A stretch of 64,000 nucleotides of DNA, from the NCBI GenBank assembly GCA_002010065.2, contig MTMD02000015.1, positions 32,001 through 96,000 of the forward strand, in the 5' to 3' direction. Under the pieces are notes generated by a model. That model saw only the letters and a list, made by a program, of their open reading frames with translations, made no database searches and was not told the DNA's origin. Of the stretch, positions 9,774 through 39,940 are shown in pieces. Each line of letters opens with the position of its first letter. The first letter of the stretch is position 1. A program made the translations under genes and the position numbers. Origin of the DNA: Candidatus Pyrohabitans jungbluthii (lineage in GTDB: Archaea; Hydrothermarchaeota; Hydrothermarchaeia; Hydrothermarchaeales; BMS3B).

Positions 9774-10985
9774 ATGAGAGGTAGATTAATCTTATTAACG
9801 TTCTGGATGCTTTTTATTCCCTTCACTTTCGCAGATAATGTTGATTTCTACATAATGAAGGTCTCTCCCGAAGAGGTTGCCCCAGGCGAAACCACAACGC
9901 TGAACATAACAATTGCCAACTTGGGCATAGATTATGCCGCATATGTGCATGCAATTCTCGACCCAGACTCGGTATCACCCCTCTCGGTGCTCGGGGCTAA
10001 GAAGATCTACGTAACAAAGTACGCGGCGGAGGGACAGCCAACCAAGTACTTCGGAGTTATACTCCAGAATGAAAGATTCACAGTGAGATACCGAGTACAC
10101 GTGGATAAAGACACGGCATTTGGCACTTATACTGTACCTCTCAAGCTGGTCTGGCGGGATGCGTACAATAACGTGCAGAGCGAGAACCTCGAGTTCGGGC
10201 TGAAGGTGGCTGGCGATCCCGAGATTGTTATTGCGGGGGTTAATAAGACCCCTGCGAGGATATATCCCGATACCGAGTTTACACTGGTGCTTGCTTTTGA
10301 GAATATAGGCACGGCAAAGGCGGAGAATGTTAAGGTGGAGCTTTCTCTGCCTCCTGGGATAACCGGCGAGAGGGTTGCATTTCTGGGCACCCTTGAAAGG
10401 GGCAGGCAAGCGGCTGCAACCTTCTCTTTGAAGGCTGAAAAGGAGGCTGAGGCGGGAGCCAAAAAGATAGGAGTAAAGTTGAGCTATACCACTGAGGAGA
10501 ACGCACAGGAACAACTCGATAAAGAGGTGGAGATCTTCATCTACGAGAAGGAACCCGCCAACTTAGAGGTTGCAGGCTTGGACACTTCTCCGGCGAAGCT
10601 CACGCCGGGTGCTGCATTTACCCTCTCCATCCAGCTTGAGAACATAGGCAAGCAGGATGCGAAGGCTGTTAAGGTTGAGCTTGCATTGCCTGAAACTTTC
10701 TCTGGCGGGCAGACCTCCTACTTGGGCACGATAAAGCAGGACGACACCTCTACTGCGATCTTTGACCTAGAGGTTTCACCCCTCGCCGAGCCGGAGAGCT
10801 ACCGCCTGCCGGTAAAGATTTACTATCTCGACGAAAAGGGTGAGCTTCACGAAGAGGAGAAGGAGATCGCAATAATCATAACCAGCCCCGAAAAGCGTCT
10901 GCCACTGGGATTGCTCGGTGGAGTTGGAATACTGCTAATTATTGCCCTCGCCTGGTGGCGCAGGCGGAGAAACGCCCAGCTCTAG
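9774..10985 (+). CDS. COG1361 S-layer-domain/Ig-like repeat membrane-anchored protein
   Basis: Signal peptide, repeated 'ENIG…A..VKVEL.LP' Ig-like units, C-terminal TM plus RRRR. Confidence 0.8.
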   Translation: MRGRLILLTFWMLFIPFTFADNVDFYIMKVSPEEVAPGETTTLNITIANLGIDYAAYVHAILDPDSVSPLSVLGAKKIYVTKYAAEGQPTKYFGVILQNERFTVRYRVHVDKDTAFGTYTVPLKLVWRDAYNNVQSENLEFGLKVAGDPEIVIAGVNKTPARIYPDTEFTLVLAFENIGTAKAENVKVELSLPPGITGERVAFLGTLERGRQAAATFSLKAEKEAEAGAKKIGVKLSYTTEENAQEQLDKEVEIFIYEKEPANLEVAGLDTSPAKLTPGAAFTLSIQLENIGKQDAKAVKVELALPETFSGGQTSYLGTIKQDDTSTAIFDLEVSPLAEPESYRLPVKIYYLDEKGELHEEEKEIAIIITSPEKRLPLGLLGGVGILLIIALAWWRRRRNAQL

Positions 10986-10995
10986 GGGGCGTGAA

Positions 10996-11682
10996 ATGGT
11001 AATTAAGCTTGAGAATGTGGTTAAGATATACCGCCTGGGCAAGGTTGAGGTACCCGCGCTGAGGGGGATAAACCTGGAGATACCCCGTGGGGAATACGCC
11101 TCCCTCATGGGGCCTTCCGGCTCTGGAAAGAGCACCCTGATGAACCTGATAGGCGCCTTAGACAGGCCGACCAGCGGGAAGGTTTACATCGATGGCACAG
11201 ACATAGCAAGGTTGAACGACGACCAGCTGGCGCTGCTCAGAAGGAAAAAGATAGGCTTCGTCTTCCAGCAGTTCAACCTCATAAACAAGCTCACAGCGCT
11301 GGAGAATGTGGCTCTGCCAATGTGGTTCTCAGGCATCAGCAGGAGCAGGAGGATGCGCCGGGCGAAGGAGCTGCTTGAGCTTGTGGGGCTTGGAGGGAGG
11401 CTGCACCATAAGCCATCGGAACTAAGCGGGGGAGAAAGGCAGCGTGTAGCCATCGCCCGAGCTTTGGCCAACGACCCGGAGATAATCCTTGCAGACGAGC
11501 CTACAGGCAACCTAGACACAGTCTCAGGCCTGGCGGTTATTGAGCTTCTGGAAGAGCTGAACAAGCTTGGGAAAACTCTTGTGGTGGTGACCCATGACGT
11601 GGAGTTTGGGAAGCGTGCGAGGATGAGGGTGAAGCTCAGAGACGGGATGATTCAGGATATAGAAGGGATTAACCATGCTTGA
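10996..11682 (+). CDS. ABC transporter ATPase (LolD/MacB family)
   Basis: GPSGSGKST, LSGGERQR, ILADEPTGNLD. Confidence 0.95.
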   Translation: MVIKLENVVKIYRLGKVEVPALRGINLEIPRGEYASLMGPSGSGKSTLMNLIGALDRPTSGKVYIDGTDIARLNDDQLALLRRKKIGFVFQQFNLINKLTALENVALPMWFSGISRSRRMRRAKELLELVGLGGRLHHKPSELSGGERQRVAIARALANDPEIILADEPTGNLDTVSGLAVIELLEELNKLGKTLVVVTHDVEFGKRARMRVKLRDGMIQDIEGINHA

Positions 11683-25288: not shown

Positions 25289-26833
25289 TTATATCAATTC
25301 CTTCCTGTACTGCCTATGTGCTTGTTTTGTTTCTTCTCTCGTGTTGCCCGCAAGCACTATAATGTTCTGACCAGGCGCCCAGATGTCTCTGAATGTGAAC
25401 ATTTCAACTGCGCCAGGCTTTTCTAGCGCCTCCTTCTGCTCTTTGCTGAGCAGTTCCCCAACGACTTCCCCCACACCATCAGGAGCTTTATGCCCGCCTA
25501 GGATGACGATGTTCTTCTCTGATTTGTACGAGTCAAAGTTCTCTGGCAGAACGTGGACAACTTCATAACCCGCGTTGCGCAGGTATTCGAAGAAGTCAGT
25601 GGCAAGAGCGTAGTCGATGAGGTTGGCGAGGATTACCATTTTACCGCTGACCTGAGATTTGAGGTGAGAAACTATCAATAGCTGGTTATCCGGATTAACA
25701 ACGAGCAAGTCATCCAGCGCGCCGTCGCCGTCGTAATCGAACGGCGTCAAAGCCCTTGCGCCTGTTTTGTTGTAGGGAGAGATTTTTTTGTCATCTTCCC
25801 GATAATAGCCCACTTGGACCCCATCTCTAATCGCATAAATTTTGTTATCGCTTCCTGCAGCAAAGCTCTCCGTTTTTCCATCGCGATTGAAATCGATGGC
25901 AACAACATCTTTGAGTCTTCCTTTATAATAACTCTGTCTCTCTCCAGATGGAGATAATTTATAAAGAAGGGAAGAAAGAATAAAAACACCTCTATCATTA
26001 TCAAGTTGAAGTATTTTTATTTTCATCCCCTCTTCATAATCAATCTCATTCTCCCAGATTTTGTCACTCTTGTTAAAAGCAAAAACATGTCCTCTAAAGT
26101 CCACTACAATTATCTCAGAAGTATACCCATCACCATTCAGGTCAACAACTTTCACCTTCAGTATTCTATTTTTGAAAAACTCCTTACCAAATCTTTTTAT
26201 CTGCGTGCCTTGAGGGGAGATTAAAGAGACGGAGTACCCCTCAGCTAAAACTATTCCCTCCTTAACACCGTCTTGGTTAAGGTCTATTGCTGCAATCTTA
26301 TCCCCTCTCTCTGAAATATCTCTCTCCCAAAGTTTCGTTCCACTATTATCAAACGCAAGTATTTTATTCCACAGCCCAACTACAATATCGTCTTCGTTTC
26401 CATCCCTATTTAAATCAGCAATAGCAATTGAGAAGACAGAGCTGGGGAGACTTTGATTTTCCCAAAGAAGCTCACCTTTTGAATCAAAAGCTGAAAGATA
26501 TTTACTTCCAATCACTATCTTAGAAGGCGCTCCTAGAAGTTTTATTGAAGCTAATGCATAAGAACTACTCACAGGCACTTTAAAACTCTTATAAACTTCT
26601 GAGCTTCCAAAGTTTATTATCCTTACCCTTCCTGTTGCCGAATCAAGCACAACGACAGCGTCATCCTCTCCGTCACCATCTCTATCGATATATGAAAAGT
26701 GGACATCTCCCGTTATTGTTACGTATGAAACCTGAATGTAGTCCTTTGCAAATTCCTCAGTAAGTTCTTCAGAGTATACAGAAGGCAAAAACCCAGCTAG
26801 CATCACAAGTATAAATAATCCACCCCATCTCAT
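25289..26833 (-). CDS. Secreted FG-GAP/beta-propeller protein with C-terminal S-layer-C-like domain
   Basis: Signal peptide; repeated D-x-N/D-x-D-G loops; C-terminal NIVILGG…IIVLAGNTREET. Confidence 0.75.
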   Translation of the reverse strand: MRWGGLFILVMLAGFLPSVYSEELTEEFAKDYIQVSYVTITGDVHFSYIDRDGDGEDDAVVVLDSATGRVRIINFGSSEVYKSFKVPVSSSYALASIKLLGAPSKIVIGSKYLSAFDSKGELLWENQSLPSSVFSIAIADLNRDGNEDDIVVGLWNKILAFDNSGTKLWERDISERGDKIAAIDLNQDGVKEGIVLAEGYSVSLISPQGTQIKRFGKEFFKNRILKVKVVDLNGDGYTSEIIVVDFRGHVFAFNKSDKIWENEIDYEEGMKIKILQLDNDRGVFILSSLLYKLSPSGERQSYYKGRLKDVVAIDFNRDGKTESFAAGSDNKIYAIRDGVQVGYYREDDKKISPYNKTGARALTPFDYDGDGALDDLLVVNPDNQLLIVSHLKSQVSGKMVILANLIDYALATDFFEYLRNAGYEVVHVLPENFDSYKSEKNIVILGGHKAPDGVGEVVGELLSKEQKEALEKPGAVEMFTFRDIWAPGQNIIVLAGNTREETKQAHRQYRKELI

Positions 26834-27035
26834 GCTTGTATATTGGGAATTTATGGGTATATAATACTATCGCATACCTTATGCCATAATATATCCAGAT
26901 TCACTTTTAAAATATCTCTTTCAAAGACGTTTATCTCATTTATCTTAAAAAGAGATACATCTGAAAAAGTATACAGAAATTCAAAAACCACAATAAAATC
27001 TAAAAAACAAAAGAAAAAATAGAGGCTAGAGCCTC

Positions 27036-29426
27036 TTACAGCGCAGCTGCAAGCGCCTCGGCAGCAGCGCGGGTTTCTGTCCTGGTCTTACCAGCGACGA
27101 TTATTGCATACTTGCCGCTGGCAAAGGCATCGGCAATTACCTCTATGTCGCCATCGCTGGTTTCCCAGTTAACTGTGCTCTTCCCTGCTTCCACGAGGCT
27201 TGCGGTAAGCTTGTTCGCCACTGGTCCGCCGATAAGGACAAGGTTCATGTCCTTGTTAGCGGTGTCCTCGTCGACTATCTCGAGCTCTGGAGCCTTCTCT
27301 TCGCCACCGACTGCTGTAACAGTTATCGTCTCCGTGAGGAATTCCTTGTAGGGTTTCTTACCGGACCTCAGCTTTGAACCGCTGCTAACAGTGGTCTCCT
27401 CTGAGGTTCTAATCTTAAGCAGGTTGTTGTCATCATCGTACTCAACGGTATAAAGGGTATCCGGAACCTCAACAATCTCCTCGTCTTCCACTGTGAGGGT
27501 GGAGCTCCTGAACTCGAAGATAACATTGCTCGTGCTGGTTATGTCGCTGGGAGCCTTCACCTTCGCATAGCCAAGGACACCCTCGTCACCATCCTCAAAG
27601 GTAACAGTAGCGTCAGGGTCTACATAGCCGATGGTTATCGCTGAGTTGTCATCCACCGCACGAGCAACAAGGAAATCGCCGGAGAATATGTCCTTAACCT
27701 TATCGTCCTTGTCCGCGGTCACCCAGTCGCCTACAGCTTTACCAGTGAAGTTGTAGTAGTACAGCGAGCCATCTATCCATATACCAGCCAAGTTCGTGGT
27801 GCTGTTGTAGCTGTAGAAAGCAACCTCCTTGCCCTCAATTGTAATCTTGTTGGAAAGATCACTGGACTTGGGTATGGTCTTCTTGGAGATTATACCCATC
27901 TTTATTGTGTCCGCATCAGTGTCAATCTTGCTAACAAAGTACTGCTTGTCCCTGATCTTGGCTGTGCTACCATCCACGTACTTTAATACCTCTTTCTCAG
28001 TGGCTTTGAGGCGGTATGCAAAGGTAACATCTACCGACTTGCCGCCTTCCTCATAGTACATGAAGTCGTACAACAGGTAATCATCGTCATACTCTGGCGA
28101 GCCATCACCGTCTTCGTCAAAGTACAGCTTCACCGAATTGGTCGAAGAATTGCCAGACGCATAATCAGTTATTGTCTGATCTGCTCCAGGATCATCTGCA
28201 CTATCGCTGTCCAAGTCCTTGCTACCCCACTCTATCCTGAGGTCTTCGCCGACTGCTGTAACGGTTATTGTCTCTTTGAGGAATTCCTTGTAGGGTTTCT
28301 TACCGGACCTCAGCTTTGAACCGCTGCTAACAGTGGTCTCCTCTGAGGTTCTAATCTTAAGCAGGTTGTTGTCATCATCGTACTCAACGGTATAAAGGGT
28401 ATCCGGAACCTCAACAATCTCCTCGTCTTCCACTGTGAGGGTGGAGCTCCTGAACTCGAAGATAACATTGCTCGTGCTGGTTATGTCGCTGGGAGCCTTC
28501 ACCTTCGCATAGCCAAGGACACCCTCGTCACCATCCTCAAAGGTAACAGTAGCGTCAGGGTCTACATAGCCGATGGTTATCGCTGAGTTGTCATCCACCG
28601 CACGAGCAACAAGGAAATCGCCGGAGAATATGTCCTTAACCTTATCGTCCTTGTCCGCGGTCACCCAGTCGCCTACAGCTTTACCAGTGAAGTTGTAGTA
28701 GTACAGCGAGCCATCTATCCATATACCAGCCAAGTTCGTGGTGCTGTTGTAGCTGTAGAAAGCAACCTCCTTGCCCTCAATTGTAATCTTGTTGGAAAGA
28801 TCACTGGACTTGGGTATGGTCTTCTTGGAGATTATACCCATCTTTATTGTGTCCGCATCAGTGTCAATCTTGCTAACAAAGTACTGCTTGTCCCTGATCT
28901 TGGCTGTGCTACCATCCACGTACTTTAATACCTCTTTCTCAGTGGCTTTGAGGCGGTATGCAAAGGTAACATCTACCGACTTGCCGCCTTCCTCATAGTA
29001 CACTATGTTATACAGCTTGTAGTCATCGTCATACTCCGGTGAACCATCGCCATCTGCATCAAACCAGAGTGTCACGGAAGCATTGCCAGCCGTATAATCA
29101 CTAACACTTACATCCGCATTGTCATTGGTGGAATTTCCATCGCTGTTCAGATCCGGAGATGCCCACTCAATCTTTATATCGCCACCGACTCCGCTCACCT
29201 TCAGCTTCTCCGCCACAGCATCCTTAATTACCTCAGCGCTGGCAGTGTCAGCGTCCTTGCCAGGCGCGTCTTTGCCCACCACAAGCTGTGCCTTTGCCTC
29301 ACCGTTCTTTGCCAGCATGTCAGGCGAAAAATCGCTGGGCACACTTACCGCACTGGCTAAACCTACGGTTGCCCCAATAAACAGAGCACCCGTCGCAATC
29401 GCTCCTATTTTCTTCAAACTTACCAT
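27036..29426 (-). CDS. S-layer protein (Methanococcales/Thermococcales-type N- and C-terminal domains) with duplicated central domain
   Basis: KKIGAIATGALFIGAT signal, VVGKDAP…D, C-terminal NLVLIGGPVANKLT…IIVAGKTRTET; tandem strong promoters. Confidence 0.88.
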   Translation of the reverse strand: MVSLKKIGAIATGALFIGATVGLASAVSVPSDFSPDMLAKNGEAKAQLVVGKDAPGKDADTASAEVIKDAVAEKLKVSGVGGDIKIEWASPDLNSDGNSTNDNADVSVSDYTAGNASVTLWFDADGDGSPEYDDDYKLYNIVYYEEGGKSVDVTFAYRLKATEKEVLKYVDGSTAKIRDKQYFVSKIDTDADTIKMGIISKKTIPKSSDLSNKITIEGKEVAFYSYNSTTNLAGIWIDGSLYYYNFTGKAVGDWVTADKDDKVKDIFSGDFLVARAVDDNSAITIGYVDPDATVTFEDGDEGVLGYAKVKAPSDITSTSNVIFEFRSSTLTVEDEEIVEVPDTLYTVEYDDDNNLLKIRTSEETTVSSGSKLRSGKKPYKEFLKETITVTAVGEDLRIEWGSKDLDSDSADDPGADQTITDYASGNSSTNSVKLYFDEDGDGSPEYDDDYLLYDFMYYEEGGKSVDVTFAYRLKATEKEVLKYVDGSTAKIRDKQYFVSKIDTDADTIKMGIISKKTIPKSSDLSNKITIEGKEVAFYSYNSTTNLAGIWIDGSLYYYNFTGKAVGDWVTADKDDKVKDIFSGDFLVARAVDDNSAITIGYVDPDATVTFEDGDEGVLGYAKVKAPSDITSTSNVIFEFRSSTLTVEDEEIVEVPDTLYTVEYDDDNNLLKIRTSEETTVSSGSKLRSGKKPYKEFLTETITVTAVGGEEKAPELEIVDEDTANKDMNLVLIGGPVANKLTASLVEAGKSTVNWETSDGDIEVIADAFASGKYAIIVAGKTRTETRAAAEALAAAL
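27335..29002. repeat. 726 bp direct repeat (27335-28060 = 28277-29002), period 942 bp, inside the S-layer gene
   Basis: Identical translated sequence and identical DNA at every point compared by eye; flanks diverged. Confidence 0.9.
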
Positions 29427-32668: not shown

Positions 32669-33121
32669 TGAATCACCTCTCTATTTATCTCCCCAATCGC
32701 TTTATAAAAGTTCCGTGGGTGATGCACGCGCTGGATAAGATTATATCTTAATTACTATTTAACGTTGTAAACCCTATCGCAGGGTTAGAATTGGTAACTC
32801 GCTAACCAAGTAGCTGAGGCGCTACCGCAGGCTCAGTGAAAAGCTGCAGGCTTTTCCATATCTTGCAAATCAAAGCAAAACACAGGGTTTAGTTGTACGC
32901 AAAGTATCATACTAATCTTACAACTTTTTGTTGATAGGCAGGAGATTCTAAGTTTCTGCTTTCATTTCTTTTAATTCCATCTGCCTGTCAAGGAATTTAA
33001 TAATCGTATCCATACTAATTGAAAGTTATATTAGAGGTAAAGAGCCGTAATCTAATTTTCACTGCCGACGATAAACTTAATATAGCTCAATAGCATTATC
33101 ACACTGTTAAAGAAAAATTTA

Positions 33122-33241
33122 ATGCGGGGTGCAAGAGTGGACAGGAAGGAGAGAAAGGATTGGAAGCTCACCATTGAAGATTTTGAGAAGGCTGCCTGCT
33201 ACCGTGACCACGGTGACTACCGCCCCATTGCGCCTCAGTAG
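33122..33241 (+). CDS. Putative RiPP precursor peptide MRGARVDRKERKDWKLTIEDFEKAACYRDHGDYRPIAPQ (alternative GTG start at 33137, 34 aa)
   Basis: Short ORF read manually; upstream TATA-like box near 33075; GGGGTG SD before the GTG; 18 nt before an RRE-rSAM gene. Confidence 0.72.
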   Translation: MRGARVDRKERKDWKLTIEDFEKAACYRDHGDYRPIAPQ

Positions 33242-33259
33242 TATCCTGGTGCCGACGCA

Positions 33260-34570
33260 ATGGCTGCGCATGTGGTGAGAAGGAACCCCAACGTAGTTTA
33301 TCGCAGAGAAACCCGGGGTGGCACGGTAGAGGGTTTACTACTTTTTAACTATTCCACTCGTGGGATACATTTTCTTGAGGGTTTAGCAGCTAAGCTATGG
33401 GAAGTGTGCGAGGGGAAGAGCGCAGAGGAGATTGCGCATTCTCTAAAGCTGAGCAAAGCTGAGGTTGAGCGCTTTCTTGGGGAGCTTGAGGCTCGCAGGC
33501 TGGTGCGCTACAAAGGCGAGGGTAGCGAGGGTGACAACGAGGCTTTGAGCACCTCTGGCAAAGGAATGTGGAGCTCCCGGGTTTACTTCGATTCGCCAAT
33601 CTTTGTGCAATTCGACGTTACCAATGCCTGCAACCTGCGCTGCGCCCACTGCGTTACCTCCTCGGGTGAACCTCTGGAAAATGAGCTTTCAACGCAGGAG
33701 GCGCTCTCGTTGATTGATGAGCTTGCGTCGCTCGGGGTTTTCCAGATAGGCTTCTCCGGCGGAGAAGCGCTGCTACGCAGGGATATCTTCACGCTGATGG
33801 AGCACGCGAAAAAGCGAGGCATAAAGGTGCAGCTCACCACAAACGCAACGCTTATCAGCGAAGCTACAGCGAAGAAGCTGGTGAAGCTCGAGCCTATCAC
33901 CGTTGGGGTTAGCCTTGAAGGAGCAACAAAGCAGAGCTACGGAAGCTTTCGCGGCGAGGAGAACTTTGAGCGTGCCCTCTCCGGGGTACGCGCGCTCTTG
34001 CGCCACTCGCTGCCGGTGAAGCTGAAGGTCGCTGTTTCAAGGCGCAATCTTAGCGAGGTGGACGCAATTCTCAAGCTGGCGGTTGAGCTGGGCGTTGAGG
34101 CTGTGGATATGTTCCTACTCTATCCCGAGGGGAGAGCCAGGGGCATGAAGGACGAAGCCCTGAGCAGCACGGAAATTAAGGAGTTCTTAACCCTGCTTGC
34201 AAGGAGGCGCAGGGAGTACGAGGGAAAGCTTGCGATAGATGTGGACGACAAGCCCAACGCCTTTCTGGTTGACGCTTCTCTGGGTGCGAGCACCTGTGGC
34301 GCAGGCGCGTACTGGGCGGAGGTGCTGCCAAACGGAGATGTGGTGCCCTGCATTTTCCTGCGCAGTATGCGCGCTGGCAATGTGCGCGAGGCGAGCTTCA
34401 AGGAGATATGGCAGGGCAGCGTGTGGGAGCCTCTGCGCTCCCGTAGGCTAAAGGGGAGGTGCGGTGAGTGTGAGCACGCCTCTCGCTGCGGCGGGGGATG
34501 CAGGGCGAATGCGCTTTTACTGCTGGGCGACATAATGCAAGAGGATGCGCTGTGCTGGTACGGTGGTTAG
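33260..34570 (+). CDS. PqqD/RRE-fused radical SAM-SPASM peptide maturase
   Basis: N-terminal LLLFN…IHFLEGLAAKLWEVCEGKSAEEIA…VERFLGEL (RRE-like); CNLRCAHC; SPASM C…PC…CGEC…CGGGC…C. Confidence 0.85.
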   Translation: MAAHVVRRNPNVVYRRETRGGTVEGLLLFNYSTRGIHFLEGLAAKLWEVCEGKSAEEIAHSLKLSKAEVERFLGELEARRLVRYKGEGSEGDNEALSTSGKGMWSSRVYFDSPIFVQFDVTNACNLRCAHCVTSSGEPLENELSTQEALSLIDELASLGVFQIGFSGGEALLRRDIFTLMEHAKKRGIKVQLTTNATLISEATAKKLVKLEPITVGVSLEGATKQSYGSFRGEENFERALSGVRALLRHSLPVKLKVAVSRRNLSEVDAILKLAVELGVEAVDMFLLYPEGRARGMKDEALSSTEIKEFLTLLARRRREYEGKLAIDVDDKPNAFLVDASLGASTCGAGAYWAEVLPNGDVVPCIFLRSMRAGNVREASFKEIWQGSVWEPLRSRRLKGRCGECEHASRCGGGCRANALLLLGDIMQEDALCWYGG

Positions 34571-34571
34571 G

Positions 34572-35570
34572 GTGAACGCCTCAGGGTTATACGCGGTGGA
34601 GATCAGGCTAACAAAAGCGTGCAACCTGCGCTGCGCTCATTGCTCCGTCGCCGGAGGGGAGGCGGCGCGGGATGAGCTGGGCACCTCTGAGATAAAGCAC
34701 GTGCTTGACCAGCTTGCAGAGCTTCGCGTTCCCTACGTCACCTTCACAGGGGGCGAGCCTCTGCTGCGCAGGGACGCGATAAAGCTCATCGCATATGCAT
34801 CTTCGCGGGGGCTGCGCCCAAACCTGGACACCAACGGCATGCTCATAAACCCTGCCAAAGCCAAGCGCCTTAAAGAGGTAGGCATTGATCTGGTGCAGGT
34901 GAGTATCGATGGCACAGAGGAGACCCACGAAAAGATACGCGGGCAGGGAAGCTATGCTGCGGCGATTCGTGGTGCCAGGGAGGTGGTCAGGGCAGGGATT
35001 CCACTGCACATCAACTTCACCCTATCCAAGCTCAACCTCTCCGACCTCGAAGCAGTGGTGGAAACCGCCTCTTCCTTGGGGGCGAGAAGCCTCAGCCTGG
35101 AGAGGTTCATCGCCATCGGCAGGGGAGGAGCTATCGCCGAGCAGGCGCTTAGCAGCGAGGAGTTTCGTGAGGCACTGCACAGGTTTTTCTCACTGGCTGA
35201 GCATACACAGGTAAAGCTTCTCACCACCGACCCGCTGCGCGTGCTCATAGATCGCAAGCTTATAGAGCGCTACCGCGAGGAGATGTCGCGAAGAGTTTGC
35301 GGTGGGTGCACCGCTGGCATTGCAGCGCTAACCATATCCTACGACGGTGAGGTGTACCCCTGTCCGAAGCTACCCCTAAGCGTAGGTAATGTTCGTGAGC
35401 AGAGCATCGCAGAGATATGGCAGGGCAATGAGACCCTAGCGGCGCTGCGCGCGCGGGAGTTTAAGGGCAGGTGCGGTGAATGTGAGCTGGTAAATCTGTG
35501 CGGTGGGTGCAGGGGCGAGGCATTCGCGAGGGGAGATTTTCTTGGCGAAGACACCATGTGCTGGAAGTGA
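34572..35570 (+). CDS. Radical SAM-SPASM enzyme (no RRE)
   Basis: CNLRCAHC, TGGEPLLR, CTAG…YPC…CGEC…CGGC…C. Confidence 0.88.
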   Translation: MNASGLYAVEIRLTKACNLRCAHCSVAGGEAARDELGTSEIKHVLDQLAELRVPYVTFTGGEPLLRRDAIKLIAYASSRGLRPNLDTNGMLINPAKAKRLKEVGIDLVQVSIDGTEETHEKIRGQGSYAAAIRGAREVVRAGIPLHINFTLSKLNLSDLEAVVETASSLGARSLSLERFIAIGRGGAIAEQALSSEEFREALHRFFSLAEHTQVKLLTTDPLRVLIDRKLIERYREEMSRRVCGGCTAGIAALTISYDGEVYPCPKLPLSVGNVREQSIAEIWQGNETLAALRAREFKGRCGECELVNLCGGCRGEAFARGDFLGEDTMCWK

Positions 35571-35574
35571 TGGT

Positions 35575-36651
35575 ATGCGTGACGAGGAGCTTAAGGTTGA
35601 ACTTCTGTGCCGGGGAATGAAGGTTCCTGAGCAAGCGTGGAGCTACTACAAGCGGAGCGCGGGCTTTCCGATAAGGTTTGGGGATACGCTGGTAAGCGTG
35701 CCCTCCTTGGGCAAGTACGACCGCTACAGCTTCGTAGAAGCTTCGCCTTACAGCATAACGAGAAGCGACGGGAAGTGGCTGCTTCTTAAGGACGGGGAAG
35801 TGATTCGCGAAGTCGACGTAGCCGAGGTGCCCGGCTTTTACGAGAAGCTGAGCAGCGATGGCGTGGAGATGAAGCGCATATTCCAGGTTTGTGGCTGGGA
35901 CTGCGTGCTCACAGGCGTTGTTCAGAGCTGTGCCTACCAGAGGCGTGGCACCCAATGCAGGTTCTGTGGCACCATCTACAACCCTGCCTACGAGGGCAGG
36001 CTGGACAGGAAAACGCCTCAGCAGCTTGCTGAAGCCGCTGAAGCAGCGGTGGAGCACGGGATAAAGCATGCGGTTATAACCTCCGGCGTAATGCCCACCC
36101 CCGACAGGGGAGCGCGCCTCTTGCTGGAGGCTGCGAAGGCGATTAAGGAACGCGTGGATATCCCGCTTGAGGCTGAGCTCGCTCCGCCACAGGATTTGCG
36201 CTACTTGGAGCTTCTTTTAGAGCACGTGGACAGCGTGAGCATAAACATCGAAACTTTAGACCAGCGAGTGCGAGAGTACGCCTGTCCCGATAAATCCAAT
36301 ATACCCTACGAGGAATACTTCGCGGCGTATGAGCTCGCCCTCGAGGCTCTCGGCGAAAACCAAGTGAACTCCTGGCTCATCGCCGGTCTAGGGGAGAGTG
36401 ATGAGGCGATCATCGAAGGGGTTGAAGAGCTCGCTGAACGAGGCGTCTTCCCCTTCCTTGTGCCCCTCCGTCCCACAAAGGGCACGGGCTATGAGAACAC
36501 GCCGCCACCATCGCCGGAGAGGCTGAGCACGCTTGCCATGCAGGCTGCGGAGGTGGTTAAAGACTTCGGGCTGAAGCCAGAGAAGAACAAAGCCGGATGC
36601 ATGAGGTGCTCCGCGTGCTCACCCGTGAGGGACTTTCTGAAGCTGGTGTAG
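35575..36651 (+). CDS. Radical SAM enzyme, MSMEG_0568/biotin-synthase-like, CX8CX2C motif
   Basis: QSCAYQRRGTQCRFC; ITSG; LIAGLGE; C-terminal GCMRCSACS. Confidence 0.8.
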   Translation: MRDEELKVELLCRGMKVPEQAWSYYKRSAGFPIRFGDTLVSVPSLGKYDRYSFVEASPYSITRSDGKWLLLKDGEVIREVDVAEVPGFYEKLSSDGVEMKRIFQVCGWDCVLTGVVQSCAYQRRGTQCRFCGTIYNPAYEGRLDRKTPQQLAEAAEAAVEHGIKHAVITSGVMPTPDRGARLLLEAAKAIKERVDIPLEAELAPPQDLRYLELLLEHVDSVSINIETLDQRVREYACPDKSNIPYEEYFAAYELALEALGENQVNSWLIAGLGESDEAIIEGVEELAERGVFPFLVPLRPTKGTGYENTPPPSPERLSTLAMQAAEVVKDFGLKPEKNKAGCMRCSACSPVRDFLKLV

Positions 36652-37313
36652 GGCTAAAGGAGAAGTGGAGGCGCGGCTACGAAGGGTTGGCTCAGCTTAT
36701 AGCACAGCATATTTACGGGCGCGTGCTTGAGGCGGGCGCTGGCAGAGGACAGCTCACTCAGGCGCTATTGCGCTACCACGAGAACCTCGTAGCCCTGGAT
36801 GCATCGCCGGGAGAGCTTTTTAAGCTTAAACAAAGCTGCCATGTTACGGCGGTGGCAGGAGCTTTTGAGGCGCTGCCCTTCGCGGCGGGGAGCTTCAACT
36901 GCGTGGTGAGCAACTTCACCGCGGGCTGGCTAAACGAGGAGCACTTGCTCAGAGCGCTTAAAGAGTTTAAACGGGTGCTCGCCAAAGGCGGCGTCGCGAT
37001 ACTCAGCGACTTTTACCCGGAGGCAAGGAGCAAGGCGGAAGAGGTGGCGCTGCTTCAGGGCTTGCCCGAGAACAACCTCTTGCCTTCGGAGAAGTGGTGG
37101 CATCCCGAGGAGATTGCAGCGCTTGCAGCGAAGGCTGGCTTTGAGGAGGAGAAGCTAGCCTTCTACGACTGGGGCATACGCTTCACCAGAGAGGAGGCGA
37201 TACTCCAGCTCACGCGGTGGCATGCTAAGCAGGAGTTCATAGGCCGCATAGACGCTCTGCTTTCAAGGCATGGCATGGCTCTTCCCCAAAGCTATGTGCT
37301 CATGCTGAGGTAG
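36597..37313 (+). CDS. Class I SAM-dependent methyltransferase (true start uncertain, probably near 36650-36690)
   Basis: VLEAGAGRG, ALDAS, LPFAAGSFNCVV, RVLAKGG. Confidence 0.8.
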   Translation: MHEVLRVLTREGLSEAGVGLKEKWRRGYEGLAQLIAQHIYGRVLEAGAGRGQLTQALLRYHENLVALDASPGELFKLKQSCHVTAVAGAFEALPFAAGSFNCVVSNFTAGWLNEEHLLRALKEFKRVLAKGGVAILSDFYPEARSKAEEVALLQGLPENNLLPSEKWWHPEEIAALAAKAGFEEEKLAFYDWGIRFTREEAILQLTRWHAKQEFIGRIDALLSRHGMALPQSYVLMLR

Positions 37314-37317
37314 GGAT

Positions 37318-38106
37318 ATGAAGCTTCTCATCCTGGCTGGAGTGCATGGAGATGAGCCTGCTGCAGTGGAGGCAGCGAAGAGACTGGCGAGGCTTTTCCG
37401 GGACAGTGAAGAGGTTGAGGTGGTGCCGGAGGCTAACCCGGAGGCATGCTTTGCCGGCACCAGGCTGAGCCCCAGCGATGGCAGGGATTTAAACCGCTGC
37501 TTTCCAGGAAATGAAGAAGGGACGAGCACAGAGAGGCTTGCATTTAGGCTTTTTCAGAAGGTGCTTGAGGCTGAGGTTGTGGTGGACCTGCACACGCCCA
37601 GCATGGGCAGAGCGTACCTGCCCCACGCCAGGCTGCGCGTGGCCATGCCAAAGCTGAGAGAGCTGTGCTCCTATGCGGGCATGGACTATGCCACCCTTGA
37701 TGTACCTGAGCAGGGAATGCTCCAGGTGGAGGCTTCTCAGCGGGGGATACCTGTGCTCACCCTTGAGGCTGGAGAGGGAGGCAAAGCAGGCGAAGAAACG
37801 GTTAACGCTCTTGTGGAAGCGGTGCTGGGAGTGGCGCGAAGTCTGGGCGTAGCAGAAGGCGAGGCTGCTCGCGGAGAGGTGCGCTTTGTGAAGCGGGAGC
37901 GGATTCTGAGCGATGCCTCGGGTAAGCTTAAGATGAAGGTGGCGCTAGGCGATGAGGTGAGGCTGGGCACCATAGTTGCGAAGGTTGGAAAGACAAGAAT
38001 AAAGTCCCACGTGAATGGCATTGTTCTGGGTGTGAGTTCTCAGGAGTACGTGGAGGAGAATGAGTTTGTCGCCAGCATAGGCGTGGAGGTTCAGCATGAA
38101 TTATGA
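37318..38106 (+). CDS. M14-family Zn hydrolase (succinylglutamate desuccinylase/aspartoacylase-like)
   Basis: GVHGDE, DLNRCFPG, VDLH, TLEAG. Confidence 0.88.
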   Translation: MKLLILAGVHGDEPAAVEAAKRLARLFRDSEEVEVVPEANPEACFAGTRLSPSDGRDLNRCFPGNEEGTSTERLAFRLFQKVLEAEVVVDLHTPSMGRAYLPHARLRVAMPKLRELCSYAGMDYATLDVPEQGMLQVEASQRGIPVLTLEAGEGGKAGEETVNALVEAVLGVARSLGVAEGEAARGEVRFVKRERILSDASGKLKMKVALGDEVRLGTIVAKVGKTRIKSHVNGIVLGVSSQEYVEENEFVASIGVEVQHEL

Positions 38107-38638
38107 GGAATGCTATGAGCTTATAAAGCGCGCTCGCTACCGCGATGCAATCTCTTGCTTAGAACGCCTGCTCAGCGCCAACCCGCGCGACGACCGCGCG
38201 TGGGTTACCAAGGCGGGGGCGCACCGTGCCATAGGCGAATACCACGAGGCTTTGAGCTGCTACGACGAGGCGATTAAGCTCAACCCGAGCAACGACGACG
38301 CGTGGTACTTCCGCGGCAAGCTCTTCGCCAGATGGAGTGAGCACGCTGAGGCTGAGCGCTGCTTTGCCGAGGTGCTGAAGCTCAACCCGCGCGATGAGTA
38401 CGCATGGATAGGCAGAGGAAAGGCGCTTAAAGGTTTAGCCCGCTACGAGGAGGCGCTGCGCTGCCTGGACAAAGCTATTGAGATTAACCAGCGCAACGAG
38501 GACTCGTGGATGCTTAAGGCGGAGGTGCTGCTGAAGCTGGGGAAGCGCGACGCTGCCATCGCCTGCCTCAAGCGCGTGCTGGAAATTAACCCCAGAAACG
38601 AGGACGCGAAGGATAAGCTGGAGAGGATAAGGGAATGA
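38096..38638 (+). CDS. Tetratricopeptide repeat protein
   Basis: About five 34-aa repeats with AW..(K/R)G…A..C…(A/V)(I/L)..NP. Confidence 0.9.
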   Translation: MNYEECYELIKRARYRDAISCLERLLSANPRDDRAWVTKAGAHRAIGEYHEALSCYDEAIKLNPSNDDAWYFRGKLFARWSEHAEAERCFAEVLKLNPRDEYAWIGRGKALKGLARYEEALRCLDKAIEINQRNEDSWMLKAEVLLKLGKRDAAIACLKRVLEINPRNEDAKDKLERIRE

Positions 38639-39702
38639 CGCTGAGCGTTGCTGACAAGAAGATACTTATCCAGAGCAAGGGGCTGAGAATCCCCTGGGAA
38701 GTGGAAAAAGAGCTAGCACAGCGCTTCGCGGGCGTTGAGAGCGACTATCCCAGCTTCTTCCTCGAGGGCAGCACACCTGTGGGTCTGCTCAACGGCTTCT
38801 ACACTGAAGCCTCGCCCTTTGAGCTTCGCAGGCATTGCAAGGGGTATGCGATTTTTTGCGACGACGAACCCTTCGCAGAGGTGAGCTTTCTACCTCGCAC
38901 CCCCTTCCTCGACAGGCGCACCTCTCGAGGCATAGCAATGAGGCGCATTGTTAAGATGGTTGCCCCCGGGTTTCCGATAATCTACCTTAACACGGGATGC
39001 ATGTACTGGGGGGAGAAGCAGTGCAAGTTCTGCGTGGTGGGGCACATAGACACAGAGAAGTTTAAGAACCCAGAGGATGTGGCTGAAACCGTCGAAGCTG
39101 GAGTCAAAGACGGTGGTATAAAAACCCACGTGGCGCTCACCAGTGGGGCTTTGCCCAAGGATAAGGCGATTGACCTGCTCGCAGCCACTGTAAAGGCGAT
39201 TAAAGAGCGCGTAGATATACCGGTTTCCGTTAATCTTGAGCCTCCAAGGGATTTGGGCAAGCTTGAGATGCTTGCTGATGCTGACTCTATATACCTGAAC
39301 ATGGAAGTCTACGACCCTGCCGCAAGGAAGCGCTTTCTCCCGGGCAAGAGCGAATTCTCGCCTGAGTACTACTTCAGAGCCTTTAAAGCATGCCTCGATA
39401 TATTCGAGGAGAACCAGGTATGCTCTGTGCTGCTCGCTGGCCTAGAGAGCGACGAGAGCTATCTGCGCGGCGTTGAAGCCCTCGCCGAGCGTGGCGTGCT
39501 CCCCGTAACCACGCCCTTCTACCCAGCGCTCCTCTCAAAGCTAGCGGACGAGAAGCCGCCCTCCGCCGAGAGGATGCGCCGCATATACGAGCGCAGCGTG
39601 GAGATAATCCGCGCCTATGGTTTGGACCCCTTCAAGACAAAAGCAGGTTTTATGCGCGGCGGCGCAATCTTCGCCCTCAAGGAGGTTTGGAAGGAGATGT
39701 AA
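38635..39702 (+). CDS. Radical SAM enzyme, paralogue of 35575, CX7CX2C motif, no C-terminal Cys
   Basis: TGCMYWGEKQCKFC; LTSG; LLAGLE; C-terminal AGFMRGGAIF. Confidence 0.8.
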   Translation: MTLSVADKKILIQSKGLRIPWEVEKELAQRFAGVESDYPSFFLEGSTPVGLLNGFYTEASPFELRRHCKGYAIFCDDEPFAEVSFLPRTPFLDRRTSRGIAMRRIVKMVAPGFPIIYLNTGCMYWGEKQCKFCVVGHIDTEKFKNPEDVAETVEAGVKDGGIKTHVALTSGALPKDKAIDLLAATVKAIKERVDIPVSVNLEPPRDLGKLEMLADADSIYLNMEVYDPAARKRFLPGKSEFSPEYYFRAFKACLDIFEENQVCSVLLAGLESDESYLRGVEALAERGVLPVTTPFYPALLSKLADEKPPSAERMRRIYERSVEIIRAYGLDPFKTKAGFMRGGAIFALKEVWKEM

Positions 39703-39940
39703 AAGGGCTATCCAAATTATCCTTATTATCCTTAATATATATGACCAGCCAGAACATTTCAATGATGCTGCTATATAGGCCTACCAAACCCAAAATCTCC
39801 CGCAAGTCTAGTTTCCTCATTATTATGTGATATGAGGGTACTAAATTATTCAGTAATACCCCAAACAATACAAGGGGAGCGATAAACTATATATATGCAG
39901 AATTTTTAAGGAGATAATTACCAATCCCGGAGACCAGATT

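Follow-up and report, generated by a model that had tools for sequence, protein, structure and literature searches.

The window, a stretch of 64,000 nucleotides from a deep-sea archaeon, carries eight ORFs between positions 33122 and 39702, all co-oriented on the + strand and either overlapping or separated by gaps of at most 18 nt; each of the tightly packed genes described in the earlier note is found at its reported position. The first encodes a short precursor peptide and is followed by seven protein genes, lettered A to G in order, so that the commonest form of the operon reads peptide-A-B-C-D-E-F-G. A putative archaeal TATA box, TTAATATA (33077..33084, + strand), can be read from the sequence about 40 nt 5' of the peptide ORF, and the element is kept as TTAATATA or TTAACATA in two loci of the same genus. 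According to Pfam and NCBIfam, A (33260..34570, 436 aa) is an RRE-fused radical SAM/SPASM enzyme and B (34545..35570, 341 aa) a radical SAM/SPASM enzyme without an RRE. C (vrSAM1, 35575..36651, 358 aa) and G (vrSAM2, 38635..39702, 355 aa) are variant radical SAM enzymes, as indicated by NCBIfam and their motifs. The remaining genes, assigned by Pfam, encode a class I SAM-dependent methyltransferase (D, 36597..37313, 238 aa), an AstE/AspA-type Zn amidohydrolase (E, 37318..38106, 262 aa) and a TPR protein (F, 38096..38638, 180 aa). The ORF list opens C at GTG 35503, while ATG 35575 lies 4 nt past the stop of B; the true start of D may be later than 36597. In agreement with the earlier note, no transporter gene was found by Pfam within the operon in the window.

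The ORF of the precursor peptide (33122..33241, + strand; MRGARVDRKERKDWKLTIEDFEKAACYRDHGDYRPIAPQ) yields 39 aa from ATG 33122, but its translation probably starts at GTG 33137, giving 34 aa, as suggested by a Shine-Dalgarno-like GGGGTG and by the lengths of the orthologues. It contains a near-invariant block of 22 residues, WKLTIEDFEKAACYRDHGDYRP (33161..33226), which follows the pattern WKLxIEDFE[KR][AT]ACYRDHGDY[RT]P and precedes the same enzymes in six of 38 Hydrothermarchaeota genomes. A conserved small ORF upstream of the homologous enzymes, which the earlier note proposed to look for, is present directly before A at all six operon loci (those of the window, G001, G004, G009, G019 and G025), where each peptide start is preceded by a Shine-Dalgarno-like GGAGG or GAGGTG. 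The peptide is identical to the window copy in G001 and G004 and 71-77% identical in G009, G019 and G025; the protein database adds five further members of the family, and the alignment of the eight distinct peptides has 18 invariant columns. These peptides have 30-39 aa, a single Cys and a variable C-terminal tail of 2-6 residues (IAPQ, VEPQ, VGDF and similar). Across the 22-codon block, variable columns number 4, 2 and 15 of 22 at codon positions 1, 2 and 3, respectively, and the window and G004 copies differ there by seven synonymous codons and no non-synonymous one. In-frame stops upstream exclude a longer ORF, and the gene is present in a single copy in the genome of the window. Sequence comparison thus strongly supports the short ORF as a real gene under selection. 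Two segments can be distinguished within the block: WKLxIEDF, predicted from modelling to be the RRE-binding strand, and the invariant CYRDHGDYRP, presumed to be the modified core, in which metal-ligand residues (Cys, His, Asp and Tyr) abound.

The N-terminal domain of A (residues ~1-85, 33260..33514, + strand) is strongly supported as an RRE fold by structure modelling. The model (pLDDT 83.7) shows strands at residues 12-19, 23-30 and 35-40 followed by three helices, a beta3-alpha3 arrangement, and the first dozen Foldseek matches in the PDB are mostly RRE proteins (TbiB1, PbtF-RRE, TigE, TruD, CteB and LynD), with PqqD, lasso B1 and SuiB ranking lower. The RRE/PqqD fusion recognised in the earlier note is upheld by this topology and these matches, with the limits that the Foldseek E-values are weak (best 1.1e-3) and that the Pfam PqqD match (E 0.0017, 19.1 bits) falls below its cut-off of 23.4. 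The orthologues of A form 27 clusters at or above 55% identity, beyond which identity drops to 38%; seven of these clusters, with proteins of 335-344 aa, lack the RRE, and in G019 the RRE is encoded as a separate ORF. Binding of the peptide to this RRE is predicted by complex modelling: the model of the pair scores 0.82, against 0.02 for the best of three controls. Of 157 solved complexes, 116 attained this mark, as did 2 of 215 mismatched pairs. At least 80% of the contacts are common to the runs, the partner pLDDT is at least 57, and the predicted interface includes peptide residues 14-29 and 32-34. WKLxIEDF is modelled as a strand pairing with RRE strand beta3 (A 35-39) against helix alpha3 (68-79), while the invariant core enters the radical-SAM/SPASM barrel of A. 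As the model resembles solved RRE-leader complexes, its pass may reflect this likeness rather than binding of this particular pair.

Regarding the catalytic domains, Pfam assigns both A (Radical_SAM 2.1e-23, SPASM 1.5e-11) and B (1.2e-27 and 2.2e-13, respectively). A has the cluster motif CX3CX2C (C124/C128/C131) and seven Cys in the SPASM region, and its best sequence matches in the PDB are PqqE (6c8v, 1.9e-22) and SkfB (6efn, 5.2e-18). Against the curated triceptide, sactipeptide, PQQ and mycofactocin maturases, A and B both remain below the NCBIfam cut-offs. Their best curated-family matches are NirJ2 and AhbD (230.4, 215.8, 250.8 and 236 bits; for B, AhbD 250.8 and NirJ2 236), which could indicate that A and B are tetrapyrrole enzymes of the AhbC/AhbD/NirJ type, that C, G and D decorate a tetrapyrrole, for example by thiolation and methylation, and that the small ORF is incidental. 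This explanation is very improbable. The scores of A and B to AhbC/AhbD-type families span 154-251 bits, far below cut-offs of 500-650 (500 for both matches of B), and two AhbD candidates are encoded elsewhere in the genome of the window, the one at G000:C2 being a far better match (463.5 bits) and the one at C7 reaching 297.5 bits. In a quick tree, whose rows carry names assigned automatically from their sources, A and B each form a starred clade of their own (99), outside the starred clade of 20 rows that holds all heme-synthase-labelled rows except P0191, which lies in a third clade, likewise apart from A and B. No heme-pathway gene adjoins the operon, the small ORF is under purifying selection, and A carries an RRE predicted to bind a peptide. 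A and B are thus placed outside the AhbC/AhbD clades and away from heme-synthesis synteny, points on which the earlier note had made its peptide reading partly depend.

The other two radical SAM proteins belong to a different group. The cluster motifs reported in the earlier note, CX8CX2C in C (C-AYQRRGTQ-C-RF-C) and CX7CX2C in G (C-MYWGEKQ-C-KF-C), can be read directly in the ORF translations, and Pfam Radical_SAM matches both (1.2e-13 and 8.1e-9, respectively). Judged by their family scores, C and G are members of the uncharacterised MSMEG_0568/NitD-like "variant rSAM" group: both pass NF045502 'variant_rSAM' (185.6 and 182.1 bits, cut-off 125), and C reaches 262.6 bits for TIGR04043, below the cut-off of 303.7. 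C also has a C-terminal CX2CX2C triad, which could hold a second Fe-S cluster; within C, the cysteines C119, C128, C131, C342, C345 and C348 are invariant in 22 sequences. G lacks the triad, with AGFMRGGA where C has AGCMRCSAC. The solved folds closest to the barrel of C are LipA (5exi, 8.4e-9, TMq ~0.49), HydE (5few, 4.2e-8) and BioB (8vcw, 1.1e-7), and in the model of C an additional domain of ~100 residues, rich in beta structure, forms the N-terminus. Archaeal homologues of C adjoin either FdhD together with a cysteine desulfurase-type gene, or HcyBio. That C and G might be a two-component lipoyl synthase (LipS1/LipS2-like) or a biotin synthase, located beside the peptide genes by chance, is suggested by these folds, by weak family matches of C (LipS2 8.8e-9, lipA 2.3e-7, bioB 3e-5) and by the fact that C and G are a paralogous pair, as are LipS1 and LipS2. 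However, the corresponding scores amount to 15-35 bits where the cut-offs lie at 225-310, the genome of the window contains a better LipS2-like gene (G000:C11, 230.8 bits, against 35.3 for C and 21.7 for G), and orthologues of C occur only together with the peptide operon, in six of 38 genomes, all of which makes this alternative hardly credible.

D, E and F complete the set. D matches Methyltransf_11 (4.4e-16), its best NCBIfam matches being BioC and DVU_1556-type families, all far below cut-offs, and is present at all six loci, as is F (TPR_1, 2e-33; 54-93% identity). E matches AstE_AspA_cat (2e-30) and, in the PDB, 3cdx (6.5e-19) and DoeB (6twm, 2e-15), and its Zn-site residues H10, E13, H92, R60 and E150 are invariant in five orthologues. 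The earlier call of an M14 Zn hydrolase is to be corrected in that E is of the succinylglutamate desuccinylase/aspartoacylase type, a relative of M14, and not a classical M14 carboxypeptidase.

The operon is distributed over four families of Hydrothermarchaeota and appears to be confined to some members of this phylum. The peptide pattern returned six stretches from 185,579 species genomes, five of them operon loci and one a chance match inside a long ORF, and a profile run against 1.84 billion representatives retrieved only the family's own cluster and one unrelated repeat protein; neither the peptide nor the gene set turned up beyond Hydrothermarchaeota. An occurrence in six of the 38 genomes is in itself a point against a cofactor reading. 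The same gene order in five other genomes, together with purifying selection on the small ORF, indicates an arrangement beyond chance. This order is kept as peptide-A-B-C-D-(E)-F-(G), and the flanks vary (eIF1A/RIO/KH in the genus of the window, NosL in G009, DUF362 in G019). Since one of the six loci lacks E and another lacks G, the eight genes represent the commonest form and not an invariant core. At the G025 locus there is no E, and that genome has only a gene of 34% identity at another site; in G019, the 578 nt of contig beyond F code for a nucleotidyltransferase-like protein in place of G. The pathway might therefore be smaller, consisting of the peptide, RRE/A, B, C, D and F, with G and perhaps E as neighbours of independent housekeeping function. 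For G, such a separate role may be indicated by solitary G-type genes of 55-59% identity next to NMT1-type ABC transporters in the operon-less G013, G017 and G066, and the genome of the window has no further G-type copy. Against this, the start of G overlaps the stop of F by 4 nt, G follows F at five of six loci, including that of G009, where both flanks differ, and a 48% G-type copy elsewhere in G019 could act in trans; homologues of E were present in three of three operon genomes tested and in none of two operon-less ones. The smaller pathway is accordingly rather unlikely.

Taken together, the locus is likely to be a genuine RiPP-type biosynthetic operon, perhaps leading to an intracellular, cofactor-like product, with its chemistry deduced from the enzyme families. 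In the proposed pathway, A and then the RRE-less B would introduce radical cross-links or oxidative changes into the core, which reads as three consecutive aromatic-X-X triplets (YRD, HGD and YRP). Candidate reactions include C-C bonds joining Tyr or His to an adjacent side chain, a thioether from Cys to Asp, or PqqE/AhbD-like chemistry on Asp carboxylate side chains, and any choice of a specific cross-link type among them would be a guess. C, with its paralogue G, might carry out an additional radical reaction, sulfur insertion being one possibility; D would methylate; E would trim the variable C-terminal tail, or an amide; and F could hold the peptide for the enzymes that have no RRE. An intracellular product resembling a cofactor or metal ligand is tentatively preferred, given the near-invariance of the peptide beside enzymes diverged to ~58-64% identity and the lack of any transporter, immunity gene or secreted protein in the operon; no enzyme dependent on the putative cofactor was identified. 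The somewhat less probable alternative is that the same pathway makes a bioactive peptide for export (an antimicrobial, a signal or a metal scavenger), with its transporter encoded elsewhere. A precursor, an RRE-rSAM-SPASM enzyme, further tailoring enzymes and a hydrolase are a typical gene set of RiPP natural products, the patchy spread and differing flanks resemble an accessory, mobile trait, and the metal ligands of the core would suit this role, as would the NosL-type copper-chaperone gene directly upstream of the G009 operon. This adjacency, however, is found at one of six loci; no transporter, immunity gene, signal-peptide-bearing leader protease or secreted protein occurs at any of them; and a core that is near-invariant across lineages with such diverged enzymes is unlike arms-race peptides.

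The most likely reading, a new RiPP-type pathway, can be set against several known systems. The view that neither the gene set nor the peptide corresponds to a described family is borne out by the curated scores of A and B and by the literature searched, in which no description of either was found. PQQ biosynthesis also combines a short, highly conserved precursor with an RRE, fused or separate as in PqqD/PqqE, and an rSAM-SPASM enzyme, of which PqqE is the best solved-structure match of A; in both, acidic and Tyr residues of the core are conserved and a transporter is lacking. In contrast, A falls short of the PqqE cut-off (134.5 bits, with 381.35 required), the Glu-X3-Tyr of the PqqA core is replaced by E-X4-Y and D-X3-Y, and the operon has no PqqB- or PqqC-type gene. 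Its further components are another SPASM enzyme, the two variant rSAMs, the methyltransferase and the TPR protein. Mycofactocin systems (MftA/B/C/E/D/F/M) follow the logic of a peptide-derived cofactor and share the small conserved peptide, the RRE, the rSAM-SPASM enzyme, a hydrolase freeing the core and, in some cases, a methyltransferase, and MftC is among the top curated matches of A (189.2 bits, below the cut-off of 265). The mycofactocin peptide ends in Gly-Val-Tyr, which is missing here; the hydrolase is of the AstE/AspA rather than the creatininase type, and there are no equivalents of MftD or MftF. LipA, LipS1-LipS2, HydE and BioB resemble C in fold and in its possible second Fe-S site, but differ from it in the added N-terminal domain, in the modest TMq with 18-22% identity and in the low family scores. 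Like MSMEG_0568/NitD of Nit1C, C and G pass the variant rSAM model and C comes near TIGR04043, although both are below the equivalog cut-off, G has no C-terminal Cys triad, nitrilase, GNAT and AIR-synthase-like neighbours are absent, and the operon of the two encodes a peptide and an RRE; the available part of one source (PMC11049912) characterises NitD no further than as belonging to the S-adenosylmethionine superfamily and to the nit1C cluster. Triceptides are defined, in the accessible text of PMC11499958, by aromatic-X-X motifs that carry an aromatic-to-C-beta cross-link, characterised examples being YDR, HTK and HAA; the core triplets are alike in motif only, and no triceptide-maturase family is found among the best 25 of the 85 and 89 NCBIfam families for A and B. 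Finally, in CrpC/CrpA from Methanococcus voltae, as far as the available portion of PMC13692751 describes it, an archaeal RRE-bearing rSAM-SPASM enzyme installs ranthionine links. As predicted here, its substrate is a neighbouring gene product; that substrate is a large Cys-rich protein, whereas the operon of the window pairs a 30-39 aa peptide containing one Cys with three further rSAMs.

An ORF list returned all eight co-oriented genes that the earlier note had placed at 33122-39702 on the forward strand. A short precursor peptide (33122-33241, an ORF of 39 aa) is followed by the genes named here A (33260-34570, 436 aa) and B (34545-35570, 341 aa), both with Radical_SAM and SPASM domains (Pfam), and by C (35575-36651, 358 aa), whose only Pfam domain is Radical_SAM, as is that of the last gene, G (38635-39702, 355 aa). 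The cluster motifs claimed for these two variant radical SAM (rSAM) enzymes, CX8CX2C in C and CX7CX2C in G, can be read directly from their ORFs. Between them lie a class I methyltransferase (D, 36597-37313, 238 aa), a protein with an AstE/AspA catalytic domain (E, 37318-38106, 262 aa) and a protein with TPR repeats (F, 38096-38638, 180 aa), all three assigned with Pfam. Since intergenic gaps from the peptide to G are of at most 18 nt or are replaced by overlaps, the block reads as one operon. It is flanked 5' by housekeeping genes for eIF1A, a RIO kinase and a KH protein on the opposite strand, and 3' by genes for a DUF515 membrane protein and dihydroneopterin aldolase. An Rfam scan of the whole window reported three tRNAs, none of them in or adjoining the operon. 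Base composition varies along the window: GC content is 0.59 at 34001-38000, in the operon, versus 0.50-0.54 in the flanks, which fits a transferred cassette, and it is 0.43 versus about 0.53 at 25289-29426, where two large secreted-looking proteins are encoded on the reverse strand, one of which, 796 aa long and with about 300 aa duplicated internally, may be an S-layer or surface protein.

The peptide is a real gene under selection. A conserved small ORF upstream at homologous loci, for which the earlier note had proposed to look, was found by tblastn directly 5' of A in all five other operon loci (6/6 in total), and the peptides differ mostly through synonymous changes. The peptide is 100% identical in G001 and G004, two genomes of the window's genus whose enzymes are 73-99% identical to those of the window, and 71-77% identical in three genomes whose A enzymes share 58-63% identity with that of the window (G009, G019 and G025). 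An in-frame stop lies upstream of the peptide in every locus, and GGAGG, GAGGTG or GGTGAT precedes each start. In the window, an internal GTG at 33137 behind GGGGTG is the likely start and would give 34 aa, matching the 30-37 aa of the orthologues. With the query extended by three in-frame upstream codons, five further peptides were recovered from the protein collection, and the eight distinct peptides share 18 invariant columns (W K L x I E D F E x x A C Y R D H G D Y x P), flanked by a variable Lys/Glu-rich N-terminus and by 2-6 variable residues at the C-terminal end. Within this 22-codon block, the variable columns at codon positions 1, 2 and 3 number 4, 2 and 15, and the window and G004 differ by seven synonymous and no non-synonymous codons. 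The core comprises three consecutive aromatic-X-X triplets (YRD, HGD and YRP), invariant or nearly so, together with one Cys and two invariant Asp.

The core pattern is present as a single copy in the window's genome, and across 185,579 species genomes it returned the five related loci and one chance match (L028), which lies inside a 512-aa ORF with no operon genes nearby. A profile search with the peptide alignment against 1.84 billion representative proteins retrieved the family's own cluster and a single other protein, P0193, a repeat protein of 1336 aa whose CYFDH[ND]DY repeats are a chance likeness.

Regarding recognition of this peptide, the N-terminus of A is predicted to have the RRE fold, a PqqD-like winged helix, in agreement with the RRE that the earlier note had read there. 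The model of residues 1-100 (mean pLDDT 83.7) shows three strands followed by three helices, and most of the first dozen matches of a fold search against the PDB are RREs (TbiB1, the PbtF RRE, TigE, TruD, CteB and LynD), with PqqD, lasso B1 and SuiB ranking lower; the best E-value is 1.1e-3 (none at or below 0.001) and TM scores range from 0.61 to 0.74. The Pfam PqqD model gives 19.1 bits, below its cut-off of 23.4. In G019, the fused enzyme is naturally split: the RRE is a separate ORF (L025:1487-1813) that ends within the first bases of the rSAM-SPASM gene (1806-2840). Likewise, 7 of the 27 clusters of A orthologues consist of forms of 335-344 aa without an RRE, so the module can be part of the enzyme or stand free, like PqqD/PqqE. 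The modelled complex of A with the peptide scores 0.82 versus 0.02 for the best of three controls, passing a mark that 116 of 157 solved complexes and 2 of 215 mismatched pairs attain, although the pass may reflect likeness, since RRE-leader complexes have already been solved. Contacts agree across runs to at least 80%, and the pLDDT of the partner is 57 or more. Residues 18-21 of the peptide are placed against residues 35-39 of A, near residues 68-79 of a helix, and peptide residues 22-34 reach residues of the barrel and the SPASM domain. As a prediction, the model supports binding of the leader peptide to the RRE of A.

A and B could alternatively be heme-synthesis enzymes of the AhbC/AhbD type, as the families that they match best in NCBIfam are NirJ2, AhbD and MftC. 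Both stay far below every curated cut-off: A scores 230.4 bits with NirJ2, 215.8 with AhbD and 157.3 with AhbC, and B 236, 250.8 and 177.2 bits, respectively, versus cut-offs of 500-650. A genome-wide AhbD search places a gene on contig 2 of the window's genome first (463.5 bits), followed by one on contig 7 (297.5), B (250.6) and A (154). A quick maximum-likelihood tree was drawn from 53 rows, comprising the A and B sequences of six genomes, two paralogues of the window's genome and the 39 database proteins that ranked next (P0154-P0192). A and B are not sisters in it, and each makes up a starred clade (99) of its own. Of the four rows labelled as heme synthases, labels that are the automatic names of the sources, three belong to a starred clade of 20 rows that contains neither A nor B; the fourth, P0191, is in a different clade of three rows, also away from A and B. 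Heme-pathway synteny was not found at the operon, whose neighbours are the eIF1A, RIO, KH and DUF515 genes. The AhbC/AhbD assignment was therefore rejected, on the scores, the separate clades and the better AhbD candidate on contig 2. On contig 5 (L090:5467-6696), the window's genome also encodes a second rSAM-SPASM enzyme, which matches A over residues 50-292 and so into the RRE region; its gene is preceded by a 579-aa ORF and, before that, by a 522-aa ORF that resembles lipoate-protein ligase by a reading of its N-terminus only.

The two other rSAM enzymes, C and G, belong to a less characterised type. Both pass the NF045502 'variant_rSAM' domain model (185.6 and 182.1 bits, respectively, versus a cut-off of 125) and miss the TIGR04043 (MSMEG_0568) equivalog (262.6 and 169.8 bits versus 303.7). 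In the model of C (pLDDT 91.8), about 100 N-terminal residues make up a beta-rich domain, after which comes a barrel whose nearest folds are lipoyl synthase, HydE, biotin synthase and ThiH (E-values of about 1e-8 to 1e-6, TMq of about 0.49, 18-22% identity); the sequence profile of C reaches only human LIAS (2e-4). These likenesses raise the question of a lipoyl or biotin synthase. The family scores of C are 35.2-35.3 bits with LipS2 (cut-off 270), 30.5 with lipA (310) and 26 with LipS1 (230), and G scores 21.7 bits with LipS2. Canonical lipA was not found in the window's genome, whose best LipS2-like gene lies on contig 11 (230.8 bits). Because C and G both score far lower than this gene, and on the family scores, they were rejected as lipoyl or biotin synthases.

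The three cluster cysteines of C and its C-terminal CX2CX2C are invariant in 22 orthologues, and AGFMRGGA replaces the latter site in G and in all G-type proteins. The bacterial relatives belong to the Nit1C cluster, where NitD is described, in the available text of two papers, only as belonging to the S-adenosylmethionine superfamily (PMC11049912; PMC7815647). Pfam detected no Nit1C-type neighbours (nitrilase, GNAT or AIR-synthase-like) in the operon. Among C homologues of other archaea that carry the CxxCxxC tail (L086:7362-11300 in G076, L085:6640-10015 in G255 and L084:9224-10860 in G195), the neighbours are a cysteine desulfurase-type aminotransferase with FdhD, or HcyBio (a homocysteine sulfur-incorporation enzyme), or GNAT, the last being found only at the distant homologue L084. 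By analogy, these neighbourhoods hint at a sulfur chemistry for C. For G, the protein atlas returned generic Radical_SAM clusters only.

E is, by its sequence, a predicted Zn amidohydrolase of the AstE/AspA type, related to M14: it passes PF24827 (106.2 bits versus 25, Pfam) and meets no specific equivalog (DoeB 67.9 versus a cut-off of 402.7). Its residues H10, E13, H92 and E150, the putative Zn/catalytic site, are invariant in five orthologues. E homologues were found in 3/3 operon genomes tested and in 0/2 operon-less genomes tested. The G025 locus lacks E, D being directly followed by F, and the rest of that genome offers only a gene of 34% identity.

Orthologues of A and C with very high scores occur in 6 of the 38 Hydrothermarchaeota genomes, under four family codes (G000, the window's genome of 1.99 Mb, in which the window lies on contig 15, with G001, G004, G009, G019 and G025). 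In the protein collection, C has 22 clusters of at least 55% identity, followed by a drop to 41%, and A has 27, followed by a drop to 38%; their names in all sources are 'radical SAM protein' or the TIGR04043 family label, and nothing more. A metagenome scan with the C alignment gave 85 pattern matches and four confirmed loci, which at 1.8-2.8 kb are too short for context. All six loci keep the order peptide, A, B, C, D, F. The flanks differ between families, so that the operon acts like a transferable unit: in G001 (L021:10006-11166) and G004 (L022:11040-12158), the gene directly 3' of G encodes a multiheme cytochrome c, NosL precedes the peptide and FmdE follows the operon in G009, and DUF362 precedes it in G019. 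In the window, G is followed by 238 non-coding bases (39703-39940), with no multiheme cytochrome. A PemK/MazF-like toxin ORF lies between E and F in G004 (L022:9080-9313).

The position of G is less constant. G follows F in 5/6 loci, the G025 contig ending inside it, and a nucleotidyltransferase-like gene takes its place in G019. Stand-alone G-type genes, 48-59% identical to G of the window (55-59% in G013, G017 and G066), lie beside NMT1/THI5-type ABC transporter genes in G013 (L050:9307-10359), G017 (L052:7963-9027), G019 (contig 2, L051:8569-9627) and G066 (L087:8965-10032). In G013 and G019, a small protein of the PqqD family and a B12-binding rSAM are also encoded close by, and the G019 gene adjoins MfnB (4-HFC-P synthase). 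These loci may represent a second, unrelated pathway using the same enzyme type, and, given them and the absence of G after F in G019, G may have, or derive from, a role independent of the peptide pathway. G031 carries two G-type genes 2.7 kb apart (L055:7201-8259 and 10960-11541), with no A or B homologue nearby.

Taken as one pathway, the operon suggests the following sequence of events. The WKLxIEDF leader strand would dock on the RRE, with the core placed in the barrel of A as modelled, and A, then B, would introduce radical cross-links or oxidative changes into CYRDHGDYRP. C together with G might carry out a further radical modification, possibly with sulfur, D would methylate the peptide, and E could remove the variable tail or an amide, while F might present the peptide to the enzymes without an RRE. 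A weapon is less favoured than an intracellular product like PQQ or mycofactocin, because the core hardly varies between loci whose enzymes have diverged, and because exporter, immunity gene and secreted component are all missing from the operon. The presence of the operon in only 6 of 38 phylum genomes speaks against a cofactor, and no enzyme dependent on the product was found. A bolder proposal, which we consider rather unlikely, is that PQQ and mycofactocin are joined here by a third redox cofactor or metal-binding prosthetic group that derives from a peptide, which would be the first known from archaea; two SPASM enzymes and two NitD/MSMEG_0568-like variant rSAMs, one of them inserting sulfur, would build it from the invariant CYRDHGDY core. 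If true, it would give the first catalytic function for this widespread family.

Hydrothermarchaeota are an uncultivated phylum of the subseafloor crust. Archaeal radical-SAM RiPP pathways are almost unexplored, and none has been described for this phylum. The open-access papers and preprints searched hold no description of the peptide, the gene set or any Hydrothermarchaeota RiPP; among the open-access papers listed, MSMEG_0568 is not mentioned, nor is TIGR04043/NF045502, for which only Nit1C papers were retrieved, and the single paper in which Hydrothermarchaeota, radical SAM and RiPP all occur names the first two among its references only. The operon offers a clean system, with a substrate of 30-39 aa, a near-invariant block of 22 residues, a defined recognition domain and four rSAM enzymes. 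Solving its product could reveal a new cross-link or sulfur-insertion chemistry, would provide substrate context for the chemistry of the MSMEG_0568/NitD-like family of C and G, widespread in bacteria and archaea, and, should the product remain intracellular, could extend the set of cofactors derived from peptides by a new one.

Compared with known systems, the closest solved structures to A by sequence are PqqE (1.9e-22) and SkfB (5.2e-18). With the PqqE equivalog, A and B score 134.5 and 141.3 bits versus a cut-off of 381.35, and Pfam found no PqqB or PqqC domains in the operon; with MftC, they score 189.2 and 167.1 bits versus 265. Scores with sactipeptide and ranthipeptide maturase families are also below the cut-offs (StsB 162/625, SkfB 85.7/300, AlbA 78.2/850 and PapB 76.2/340 bits), and the peptide has one Cys, in contrast to the Cys-rich core of those systems. 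Triceptide synthases act, according to the available part of PMC11499958, on aromatic-X-X motifs, and by the definition given there this motif type is shared with the operon peptide core; no triceptide-synthase family is among the best 25 of 85 NCBIfam families for A or the best 25 of 89 for B. The closest archaeal precedent in the papers searched, CrpC/CrpA of Methanococcus, differs in its substrate, which the accessible portion of the source presents as a large Cys-rich protein (PMC13692751). What the operon shares with known pathways is the logic of RRE and rSAM-SPASM enzymes. Its family of precursors is new, as is the use of two variant rSAMs of the NitD-like kind alongside a TPR protein and a hydrolase of the AstE type.
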